From Synechococcus sp. (lineage in GTDB: Bacteria > Cyanobacteriota > Cyanobacteriia > PCC-6307 > Cyanobiaceae): a stretch of DNA of 64,000 bases. A program made the translations under genes and the position numbers. This document shows positions 339 through 38,988 of the stretch, in pieces. The stretch lies in the NCBI GenBank assembly GCA_047285805.1, contig JBJBCN010000003.1, positions 768,001 to 832,000 of the forward strand, in the 5' to 3' direction. Position 1 is the first letter of the stretch. Each line of letters starts with the position of its first letter. The notes under the pieces are model-generated. The model had not been told where the DNA came from, made no database searches, and saw nothing but the letters and a program-made list of their open reading frames with translations.

Positions 339-1970
339 CTAGCTGAGGGCAGGGGCCTGCAGTAGTGGTGCCTGTCGAATCAAGCCCGCTCCAGCAGGAG
401 CGGTGAGGGCCTTCATTGAGCTCTCGTTTCTAGCCACCAGCAGTTCCATTGAGGCCTTGTAGCTGTCGGTCATTAACCGCGGGTAGAGGCCAATGCCGAT
501 GATCGGCACCAAGAGACAGCTAATGATGTAGATCTCGCGGGGCTCGGCATCCACCAGGTTGGTGTGGTCAACGAGCTCGGCTTTTTCCTTGCCGTAGAAG
601 ATCTCCCGCAGCATGGAGAGCAGGTAGATCGGGGTCAGGATCACGCCGATCGCGGCGAGGCCGTCAATGGCCACCCGGAAGGGAAGCGTGTAGGCGTCGT
701 CAGTGGCGAATCCTACGAAGACCATCAGTTCGCTAACGAAGCCGCTCATCCCAGGAAGGGCCAAGGACGCGAGCGAGCAGACCGTCCAGAGCGCAAACAT
801 TTTGCGCATCTTTTGGCCGACCCCACCCATCTCGTCGAGTTGAAGGGTGTGGGTTCGGTCGTAGGTGGCTCCCACCAGGAAGAAGAGCGAGGCGCCAATG
901 AGACCGTGGCTGATCATCTGCAGCATCGCCCCGCTGGAGCCCAGGGCGCTGAAGCTGCCAATGCCAATCAGCACAAAGCCCATGTGGCTAATAGAGCTGT
1001 AGGCGATCTTGCGTTTGAGGTTGCGCTGGGCGAATGAGGTGAGGGCGGCATAAATGATGTTCACCACCCCCAGCACCACCAACAGCGGGGCGAAGACGGC
1101 GTGCCCATCTGGAAGGATCTGACAGTTGAAGCGCAGCAGCGCATAGCCGCCCATCTTCAGCAGGATGCCGGCCAGCAACATGTGAACCGGGGCTGTGGCC
1201 TCGCCGTGGGCATCCGGTAGCCAGGTGTGGAGTGGAACGATCGGCAGCTTCACGCCGAAGGCGATCAGCAAGCCCGCATAGGCCAACAGTTGGAACTTCA
1301 AGGGGAATCCCTTGGCCATCAGGTCGCTGTACTCAAAGCTGGTGTGGCCGCCGTAGAAGGCCATCGCCAACCCCGCCAGGAGGATGAACAGCGAACTGCC
1401 AGCGGTGTAGAGGATGAATTTGGTGGCGGCGTACTGGCGTTTTTTGCCCCCCCAAATCGCGAGCAGGAGATAGACCGGAATCAGCTCCAGCTCCCAGGCC
1501 AGGAAGAAGAGCAGCATGTCCTGGACAGCGAAGACGGCGATTTGGCCGCCATCCATGGCCAGCAGCAGGAAATAGAACAGCCTCGACTTAAAGCTCACCG
1601 GCCAGGCCGCCAGGACCGCTAGGGCTGTGATGAAGCTAGTGAGAAGGATAAGCGGCATGGAGATGCCGTCGGCACCTACCGACCAGGCCAGCCCGAGTTC
1701 GGGGAGCCAGCTCACCCGCTCGACCAATTGCAGATTCGGGTCGCTCGGGTCGTAGCCCGTCAGGTACCCGCCCACTGTCAGCAGGAAGGTGATTAGGGCA
1801 ATCCCGAGGGCGAACCAGCGGACCTGCTTCCCATCTCCCTGGTCAGGGATGAAGGGGATACAGAGTGCCGCTCCAATGGGGAACAGGATCGAGGCGCTGA
1901 GCCAGGGGAAGGCCGTGCTGCTCGCCTGTTCCGCCGCGACGGCTAGGGTTGAAACGAAGTCCAGGAGCAC
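339..1970 (-). CDS. ndhD: NAD(P)H-quinone oxidoreductase subunit 4 (NdhD1 type)
   Basis: 543 aa polytopic protein with [19 protein letters not shown] and [10 protein letters not shown] motifs; adjacent to ndhF. Confidence 0.96.
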
Positions 1971-37218: not shown

Positions 37219-37299
37219 TGCTGTTTGTGGCACATGACCGCTTCTCGGGCCCCTTCGAGGCCTTGATCATCACAAAGAGGCCTTGTGCCTCAATCCTCT

Positions 37300-37317
37300 A
37301 TTGGTGTGAGGACCAAT
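37300..37317 (+). promoter_or_regulatory. Porin RBS hairpin containing a Yfr1-type target site (GGTGTGAGGA)
   Basis: ATTGGT-GTGAGG-ACCAAT; GTGTGAGGA is complementary to the core of the Yfr1 conserved motif. Confidence 0.7.
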
Positions 37318-38908
37318 GAAACTGTTCCAGAAGCTTCTTCTGGCGCCTGCAGCACTGGGCCTTCTGGCTCCTGTCGCTGCAAACGCCGCTGACGTCAACA
37401 TTGCTGGCCTGAGCCAGTACGGCGTCGAAGAGCAGGTGACTTCGATCACCCAGTTCTCCGACGTGCAGCCCACCGACTGGGCTTATCAGGCACTGAGCAA
37501 CCTGATCGAGCGCTACGGCTGCGTCGCTGGTTACCCCAACGGCACCTATCGCGGCAACCGTGCGATGACCCGCTATGAAGCGGCCGCACTGCTGAACGCT
37601 TGCCTCGACCGGATCACTGAGGTGACTGACGAGCTCAAGCGCCTGATGAAGGAATTCGAGCGTGAGCTGGCTGTGCTCCGCGGCCGCGTTGATGGCCTCG
37701 AGGCCCGCGTCGGCGAACTGGAAGCTACTCAGTTCTCCACCACCACCAAGTTGCGTGGTCTGGCCACCTTCGTTGTGGGTGCTAACAGCTTCACCGGAAC
37801 CAGCCCCAACGTTGATACCAACAAGGATTCGCTGGGCGCTACCACCTTCAACTACGACCTGCGCCTGATCCTCGACACCAGCTTCACTGGTAAGGATCTG
37901 CTTCGCACTGTCCTGCGTGCTGGCGACTTCGATGGCTCCGCTTATTTCAGCGGCCTGACTGCTCTCGAGACTGCTTTCCAGTCTCCTGCAGCTGACGACG
38001 TCGTTTCCATCAAGCGTCTCTTCTACAACTTCCCCGTTGGCGACGACTTCAGCGTCACTGCTGGTGCAACCGTCCGTGTGGATGACGCCGGCATGCTCGG
38101 CATGTGGCCCAGCGTCTATCCCGCTGACACCGTTCTCGACTTCTTCACCTACGCCGGTGCTCCTGGCGCATATGACCTCGATGGTCTGGGTGCAGGTTTC
38201 GGTGCCACCTACAACAATGTTCTGGGCTTCGAGGGTGTCACCCTGTCCAGTAACTACGTCTCAATCAACGGTGACGAAGGAACTGCAGGTCTGATGACCG
38301 ACAGCTCCAGCTCTGTGAGCGTCTCTCAGCTCGGCTACACCGGCGGAGAGTTCCCCGTCATCGGTGGTAGCGCTTGGGGTGCAGCTGTGGCTTACACCTA
38401 CAGCCAGAACAACTCTCTGTTCATCGCGACTCCGCTGGCTGGCTCTATGGGAGCTACCGGTGCCACTAACAGCTTCGGCTTGAGCGGCTACTGGGTCCCC
38501 GAGAGCACCGGCTGGATTCCTTCAGTCAGCACCGGTTGGGGCACCAGCTCTTTCCAAGATGCCGGCTATCGCACCGACACCTTCGCCAAGGCCCAGTCTT
38601 GGTACGTCGGTCTGCAATGGCCTGATACCTTCGTCGCTGGTAACGACCTGGGCATGGCTGTTGGTCAGGCTCCCTTCGTGACCAGCACTGGCTACGGCGC
38701 TGTGGAAGGTCCTAAGACGCCTCTGGACTCCAACTACATGTGGGAGTGGTGGTACAAGTTCCAGGTGACCGACAACATCACTGTCACCCCGGCTCTGTAC
38801 TACATCCAGAACTACGAAGGCCAGAACGGCCGTGTTTCCACCAACGGCAACATGGACGCCTCCAACAATGTCTTCGGCGGCCTGCTGAAGACCACCTTCA
38901 AGTTCTGA
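37316..38908 (+). CDS. Som-type outer-membrane porin (SLH domain + OprB-like beta-barrel)
   Basis: Signal peptide, QFSDVQPTDWAYQAL and RYEAAALLNACL SLH, coiled coil, FSTTTKLRG, C-terminal KTTFKF. Confidence 0.95.
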   Translation: MKLFQKLLLAPAALGLLAPVAANAADVNIAGLSQYGVEEQVTSITQFSDVQPTDWAYQALSNLIERYGCVAGYPNGTYRGNRAMTRYEAAALLNACLDRITEVTDELKRLMKEFERELAVLRGRVDGLEARVGELEATQFSTTTKLRGLATFVVGANSFTGTSPNVDTNKDSLGATTFNYDLRLILDTSFTGKDLLRTVLRAGDFDGSAYFSGLTALETAFQSPAADDVVSIKRLFYNFPVGDDFSVTAGATVRVDDAGMLGMWPSVYPADTVLDFFTYAGAPGAYDLDGLGAGFGATYNNVLGFEGVTLSSNYVSINGDEGTAGLMTDSSSSVSVSQLGYTGGEFPVIGGSAWGAAVAYTYSQNNSLFIATPLAGSMGATGATNSFGLSGYWVPESTGWIPSVSTGWGTSSFQDAGYRTDTFAKAQSWYVGLQWPDTFVAGNDLGMAVGQAPFVTSTGYGAVEGPKTPLDSNYMWEWWYKFQVTDNITVTPALYYIQNYEGQNGRVSTNGNMDASNNVFGGLLKTTFKF

Positions 38909-38920
38909 TCCAGAACAGCT

Positions 38921-38988
38921 AGGGCTCTCTCCTCACACCTAGAGCCCTTTTTGACCTCGTTCAACCCCGGCTTCGGCCGGGGTTTTTT
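38921..38988 (+). ncRNA. Candidate 3'-UTR RNA element carrying the Yfr1 seed
   Basis: Hairpin AGGGCTCT-[CTCCTCACACCT]-AGAGCCCT followed by a terminator. Existence as a separate RNA is inferred, not shown. Confidence 0.55.
38963..38988 (+). terminator. Intrinsic terminator of the porin gene
   Basis: AACCCCGGC-TTCG-GCCGGGGTT followed by TTTT; C(UUCG)G tetraloop. Confidence 0.92.

Follow-up and report, generated by a model that had tools for sequence, protein, structure and literature searches.

A Yfr1-type seed displayed in the 3′ tails of picocyanobacterial porin mRNAs, with Yfr2 as its best predicted pairing partner

The 3′ tail of a Som-type porin gene in a picocyanobacterial genome (2.37 Mb, 61% GC) carries a hairpin that holds a Yfr1-type seed in its loop, and comparison with other porin ends indicates that this tail element is real, conserved and selected at the RNA level. 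The best pairing partner predicted for the loop is the sRNA Yfr2, whose 5′ end it complements. This complementarity had been overlooked in the initial annotation of the window (the whole 64,000-nt stretch of DNA that was analysed), which had paired the loop with the ribosome-binding site of the same mRNA.

The porin CDS (37316..38908, plus strand) encodes 530 aa of a Som-type outer-membrane porin with the Pfam domains SLH (PF00395) and OprB (PF04966). Twelve nucleotides (38909-38920) separate its stop codon from the seed hairpin (38921..38948, plus strand), which is made up of a perfect 8-bp stem (38921-28/38941-48) and a 12-nt loop (38929-38940) holding (C)TCCTCACACC, and which is supported by the sequence, by folding and by the loop display seen in relatives. 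The copy of TCCTCACACC at 38930-39 is the exact reverse complement of leader positions 37303-12, which stop 3 nt short of the porin ATG, and it matches the Yfr1 undecamer ACUCCUCACAC in 10 of 11 positions, the first base being the one that differs. Immediately 3′ of the hairpin comes a run of five T (38948-52), followed by an intrinsic terminator (38963..38988, plus strand) with its stem at 38963-84, a UUCG loop and a U-tract reaching 38988. The spacer, stem, loop, 10-nt complement and terminator were all confirmed in the sequence as first described. The 10-mer has two sites in the window, one in the leader and one in the tail, compared to 0.08 expected, a number reached in none of 100 shuffles, and the tail folds with a z-score of -4.5. 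Searches with Rfam returned nothing at the gathering score for the tail, the 15 weak matches corresponding to the terminator or to chance, and RF01116 gave no match at E up to 10; the tail is thus not a recognised member of the Yfr1 family, a point that the initial annotation had left for checking.

The T run behind the hairpin was absent from the initial annotation, as was a second hairpin described next. Two further features lie close to the seed hairpin. A 6-bp hairpin spans the stop codon (38902..38916, plus strand; MFE fold), and such hairpins form in 39 of 101 porin tails versus 10-16 after shuffling, with no association with the seed (P = 0.16); they are reminiscent of the stop-codon hairpins bound by Rbp3. 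A second anti-GAGG word, CCTCGTT at 38955-61 (within 38952..38961, plus strand), complements the loop motif of one Yfr2 copy according to duplex prediction. Similar words are found in the closest orthologues and the family-wide enrichment is not specific to CCTCGTT, and the word is kept as a lead only. As a separate observation, 82 of the tallied porin ends have TGATC directly after the last codon. On the other side of the gene, a 16-nt imperfect direct repeat (37257-37292, spacing 20 nt), possibly a regulator site, lies in the short intergenic stretch that separates the porin from a divergent PMT_2 glycosyltransferase gene.

The leader complement overlies the porin ribosome-binding site as a putative docking site of the Yfr1 type (37303..37312, plus strand; core GTGTGAGG at 37304-37311). 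Among the matches listed, 60 of 62 related porin leaders contain TGTGAGG, preceded by G in 60 of 60. The initial annotation had further proposed that this site folds as a hairpin, ATTGGT/ACCAAT (37300..37317, plus strand), exposing the Shine-Dalgarno (SD) bases for a loop-loop kissing interaction. The hairpin is indeed present in the sequence and is the MFE fold for four of six trial 5′ ends; with the ends placed at 37281 and 37286, another stem (37288-92 with 37307-11) buries the SD instead. However, the core of the hairpin can form in only 12 of 60 related leaders and, once formed, it masks 4 of the 10 complementary bases. It is a possible hairpin, one of two alternative folds and not conserved, and the idea of kissing with a conserved 5′ hairpin was rejected. 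A different hairpin, GGCGC...GCGCC, with 5-6 bp, is conserved about 5-10 nt upstream of the Yfr1 site in many Cyanobium-type porin leaders (L069, L079, L085, L105, L117, L136 and others). In the second porin of L216 (G023:C1:2172085 onward) the leader site is intact and no ATG could be located where the start usually lies, which could indicate an alternative start or an inactivated copy.

A scan for the porin C-terminus that was blind to the motif yielded at least 123 porin ends from at least 125 stretches, and 112 were kept after 11 ends without a U-run had been dropped. Among the matches listed, the 7-mer CCTCACA is present in 56 of these 112 tails (3.4 in dinucleotide shuffles, 0 on the opposite strand) and CCTCACAC in 42 (1.5 and 0, respectively). 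When tails were clustered at 60% identity, the 7-mer was kept in 46 of 113 clusters versus 2 expected. A strict pattern, consisting of the porin C-terminus, a stop codon and CTCCTCACAC within 32 nt, was matched in 19 of 301 genomes of the family, with no match in the control, and all 19 loci are porins. A looser pattern, combining a porin end with CCTCACAC, was matched in 56 of 110 near-complete family genomes representing 18 of 32 genera, against one in the control, and 24 of the 25 newly found loci that were checked are porins. In streamlined low-GC genomes the seed was seen in 1 of 14 porins. Outside the home family the pattern occurred in 7 of 121 genomes versus 3 in the control; porins account for five of the seven, of which one belongs to the home family and four to two other families, and the element is rare outside the family. 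One low-GC genome carries the full Yfr1 undecamer in the terminator loop of a porin-like gene without an SLH region (L279; G058:C5, minus strand near 1530-1490), with another GTGTGAGG about 110 nt downstream.

The seed is not only present but is also kept exposed. Among 69 tails with a seed it is predicted to be fully unpaired in 59 and to lie in a hairpin loop in 45; in 40 of the 69 the stem that carries it has at least 6 bp, compared to 1-7 in 20 flank shuffles. Looped seeds show an invariant word in a loop of 12-16 nt, carried on stems of widely differing sequence. In counts made without folding, 19 of 40 dereplicated tails had at least seven contiguous pairs between their own arms, versus 4.1% of 1560 swapped pairs; a MAFFT alignment of the tails was left out of these pair counts because loop lengths differ. 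In most tails without such arms, the seed is shown in a linker that joins a small hairpin to the terminator, which is the layout of Yfr1. One-change variants of the seed that keep G-U pairing with GUGUGAGG numbered 17 versus 2.6 expected, and other variants 9 versus 8.7; as the wobble-keeping changes are all transitions, mutation bias is confounded with the pairing signal, and within that limit the bias would fit base pairing rather than reading by a protein. Taken together, an unpaired looped word, unrelated stems, pairing between own arms and G-U-keeping variants argue for selection on an exposed RNA word. The conserved loop with a covarying stem that had been proposed as a check in porin 3′ UTRs is thus borne out, and with it the suggestion that the mRNA is a second source of the Yfr1-type seed.

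These data bear directly on two explanations that need no RNA partner. That the tail word is an inherited or chance sequence without present function could be argued from its absence in half of the listed porin tails and from its near absence in streamlined genomes. This is very improbable, since the invariant loop word is carried on unrelated stems, since it recurs in different architectures, e.g. the L279 terminator loop and a distant family (L274-276), and since CCTCACA was found in only 1 of 154 non-porin genes of this genome that end in a terminator. Alternatively, the CU/CA-rich loop could be a protein-binding or a stability or localisation element, its complementarity to the leader being secondary. 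Several pyrimidine-rich words do occur per tail, and Rbp3 is described as binding structured mRNA 3′ ends in Synechocystis (PMC12232666). However, the Rbp3 motif given there, UUNGN, differs from the seed word, the seed variants favour G-U-compatible changes, and the word exactly complements Yfr2 as well as a site found in mRNAs of the same family, so that we regard such an element as improbable.

The same genome encodes both Yfr1 and Yfr2. Its own Yfr1 lies at G000:C2:1111390-1111447 (56.5 bits in Rfam), flanked by genes that we take to be guaB and trxA. Rfam also recognised three Cyano-1/Yfr2 RNAs in the genome, with 5′ ends reading GUGUGAGGAGU, and none in the 64-kb window. A Yfr1-like unit of hairpin, motif and terminator (L050; G000:C2:256700-258000, positions 721-779 and 475-543, minus strand; 28.9 bits) stands about 180 nt upstream of a Yfr2 gene, the order also seen for yfr10-yfr2 in MED4, with a long inverted repeat between the two. 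Five porins were found in the genome; four have the leader site in common, and these four carry CCTCACA or CTCACAC before the terminator, while the fifth has neither. Across 2342 roughly called genes, the 8-mer tail word occurs at 7 and the leader word at 10, and the two genes with both are both porins, so that a general 5′-3′ rule for other genes was rejected. Two of the porins, of 536 aa each (G000:C2:1325523-1327133 and C2:917087-918697), are near-identical and their downstream DNA is almost identical over at least 160 nt; they represent a recent duplication. Four more TCCTCACACC sites (G000:C2:278430, 295495, 513129 and 707051) gave no Rfam match at E up to 0.05; one of them lies opposite a called leader, and some may be other Yfr1 target sites.

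One partner to consider is the leader of the same molecule. In this reading, similar to that of icaR, the tail would pair in cis with its own ribosome-binding site and damp translation or trigger decay, and Yfr2 might open the loop. In a fold of the naked whole mRNA of this gene, leader and tail do form a 15-bp duplex (P = 0.84), and a cis loop would enjoy a high local concentration that sidesteps any problem of stoichiometry. Moreover, the tail 7-mer is nearly restricted to porins with a leader site (19 of 55, versus 1 of 25 without, among 80 porins of 23 genomes), although this contrast overstates independence, as the leader-less porins cluster in a quick tree and kin are not independent, and although the set leaves out contig-edge pieces and some weak matches, including the L279 porin, contains one row mis-scored as leader-less, and has as its single exception a leader with one base changed. 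Precedents for such pairing include icaR itself (PMC3868564), and distant anti-RBS words in Bacillus subtilis that do pair in cis, among them one 3′ UTR site (PMC12697547).

Several results argue against the cis loop. If a tail had evolved with its own leader, that leader should rank high among possible partners, but the median own-leader rank was 27 of 57 dereplicated porins, and 5691 of 10,000 permutations did as well. Extension of the pairing beyond the core was no better with own than with shuffled partners, and no compensatory flanks were seen, so that covariation of own leader and tail was rejected in both tests and gene-specific 5′-3′ coevolution is not supported. Two porins with altered leader cores (G044 and the second porin of L079) show no matching change in the tail. 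The predicted duplex would destroy the conserved stem (P = 0.16), and 1.6 kb of translated RNA lies between the two sites. Furthermore, B. subtilis reporters are described in which anti-RBS 8-mers lost most of their cis effect once they lay between pairing segments or were flanked by two hairpins (PMC12697547). These largely inert placements are the two tail architectures seen here, which counts for a model in trans. The cis loop is therefore on the unlikely side.

Yfr2 is predicted to fit the tail better. A Yfr2 match was found in 20 of 20 relatives, with an invariant G in 27 of 27 loci. The conserved 7-8 nt core of the seed complements leaders and Yfr2 equally well; the predicted complementarity to Yfr2 spans 10-11 bp, with a predicted net energy of -10.1 to -14.2 kcal/mol. 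The corresponding values for tail and own leader are -6.8 to -9.8 kcal/mol, equal to those of Yfr1 with the leader. The base preceding TCCTCACA is C or T, which pairs with the invariant G of Yfr2, in 27 of 29 tails, although unpaired tail bases are 74% C+T as a background and T also suits GAGGAA leaders; G, which the commonest leader would need at this position, is found in 2 of 29 only. The base following CCTCACAC is A in 31 of 42 tails and tracks neither Yfr2 nor the leaders. The tails also carry additional TCCTC words, and one of these, GTCCTC, is complementary to the second loop conserved in Yfr2 (22 of 27 true loci have GGAC there). GTCCTC is enriched in tails (31 of 165 versus 6; by clusters, 14 of 113 versus 3.1) and is not tied to GAGGAC leaders (8 of 59 versus 14 of 61). 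However, ATCCTC and CTCCTC are enriched as much, and a bipartite docking of Yfr2 through GTCCTC is kept as a lead only.

Another way for the tail to act in trans would be as a stable, 3′-processed sRNA of about 38900-38988 that directly represses porin leaders and other Yfr1 targets, as OppZ and CarZ do (PMC7398697), the binding of Yfr2 being incidental. In its succession of stop hairpin, seed and terminator the tail is similar to Yfr1 or Yfr10, its seed equals that of Yfr1 in accessibility and in net energy with the leader, and Yfr10, which also displays its motif in a loop, binds an mRNA target in vitro according to PMC6778093. Such an RNA would have to be made by processing, as no promoter-like site for a separate RNA was found here and an internal promoter was rejected (TAnnnT is present in 4 of 50 tails and absent from this one). 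Nor is the stop hairpin tied to the seed, and the product would be redundant with Yfr1 and with the Yfr10-like locus of the same genome. We therefore judge a dedicated processed sRNA unlikely. Public RNA runs offered little on the transcript itself, in that all 24 contained less than 0.2 of the words; four aligned at 80% likeness, as contigs of relatives, in which no listed piece spans CDS and tail by 31 letters on each side and which carry no strand or start/end signal.

Among known systems, the tail most resembles the Yfr10 family (Yfr10, Yfr12 and Yfr18 of Prochlorococcus MED4 and Yfr10-like RNAs; PMC2518516, PMC6778093). In both, a stem presents the Yfr1 motif in a single-stranded loop (10 of 11 motif positions in the tail), both are poorly conserved outside the motif, and both are complementary to Yfr2. 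The published members, including MED4 Yfr10, 12 and 18, are free-standing genes beside yfr2 genes (PMC2518516), those of high-light Prochlorococcus lying upstream of yfr2, whereas the tail lies beside no yfr2 gene, has its motif shortened to 7-10 nt, follows a porin stop codon at 12-60 nt and shows no promoter-like site. The idea that published Yfr10 loci are themselves porin tails was rejected, no porin being present in 20 of 20 probe-matched loci; the SS120 Yfr10 probe led to a locus without a porin within 1.5 kb, and the WH8102 probe gave no exact match in 21 genomes. The tail is thus set apart from those published Yfr10 loci that could be placed. Yfr1 (RF01116) has the same seed and the same type of leader target in its repression of som porins (PMC2796815), but carries its motif unpaired between two stem-loops at the guaB-trxA locus; in the tail the motif is looped and the undecamer incomplete, and the best of 18 related loci scored 26 bits, below the Rfam value of 38 bits. 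On sequence grounds, the tail would act like Yfr10 rather than Yfr1, the seed system having been placed in the tail of its own target.

Other 3′ UTR regulators share parts of this arrangement. OppZ and CarZ of Vibrio cholerae (PMC7398697, PMC9438474) likewise derive from a 3′ UTR that complements the translation start of its own transcript, and exert negative feedback; they are described as RNase E-processed and Hfq-dependent with seeds of their own, whereas the porin tail shares its seed with a universal sRNA for which an anti-sRNA exists. In icaR of Staphylococcus aureus (PMC3868564), an anti-SD word in the 3′ UTR also complements the SD of the same mRNA, but the pairing is gene-specific over about 40 nt; over 57 porins the tails showed no such preference for their own leader and hold the word in a loop, the extended 15-bp duplex being predicted for this gene alone. 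The sponges SroC and SkatA (PMC9438474) are mRNA tails that bind an sRNA and feed back on the parent mRNA; they sponge a repressor and give positive feedback, whereas the porin tail would bind the anti-repressor Yfr2 and give negative feedback. In the literature searched we found no report of the Yfr1 motif in porin 3′ UTRs, although Gierga 2009, Gierga 2012 and Fig. S7 of PMC6778093 lie outside that scope and could bear on the point.

Weighing these comparisons, we tentatively prefer to see the tail as a Yfr10-like seed pairing in trans, with Yfr2 as its first partner, porin leaders as a fallback and negative feedback as the outcome. The tail would display the Yfr1 seed inside the mRNA and pair with a partner containing GUGUGAGG other than specifically its own leader, most likely Yfr2 through the GUGUGAGG on its free 5′ end. 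The 5′ end of the porin mRNA would then bear a site for Yfr1 and the 3′ end one for Yfr2, and the mRNA, or a decay fragment of its 3′ end, may soak up Yfr2 and so free Yfr1. When Yfr2 is scarce, the tail itself may pair with porin leaders. By both routes a rise in porin mRNA would lower porin translation, and the feedback could be tuned by stresses that induce Yfr2. For this model we infer that the tail is transcribed, which partner it meets and in which direction it acts. Porin mRNA is probably greatly outnumbered by Yfr1 and Yfr2, and the copy number of Yfr1 is high, which weakens titration. According to PMC6778093, Yfr2 binds Yfr1 and Yfr10; on a som leader it neutralises Yfr1, and it wins the competition against an mRNA target. 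In the MED4 Yfr2 pull-down of the same paper, the som-gene rows examined (4 of 8) were all below its threshold. Yfr1 is reported to repress the leaders of a pair of som genes, PMM1119 and PMM1121 (PMC2796815). A more far-reaching version, which we hold to be possible but doubtful, is that porin mRNAs carry one docking site for each of two antagonistic sRNAs, the one for Yfr1 lying at the ribosome-binding site and the one for Yfr2 in the tail, which perhaps grips both conserved Yfr2 motifs (the loop binding the Yfr2 5′ end and the linker the Yfr2 loop). The mRNA would then be an active node of Yfr1/Yfr2 titration that feeds back negatively by sponging the anti-repressor.

Few cyanobacterial sRNAs are as widely conserved as Yfr1 and Yfr2. 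PMC6778093 and PMC6974561 treat it as an open point how regulated output can come from a Yfr1 that is nearly constitutive, and in MED4 the som porin mRNA is listed as one of the most abundant and most stable messages (PMC2897979). Built into the tail of the principal Yfr1 target in roughly half of the picocyanobacterial genomes, the seed provides a concrete, mutable handle on that question, and it would enlarge the small set of bacterial mRNAs that control their own start through the 3′ UTR. In many picocyanobacteria, porin levels are probably set by an RNA network of which the porin message is itself a part.
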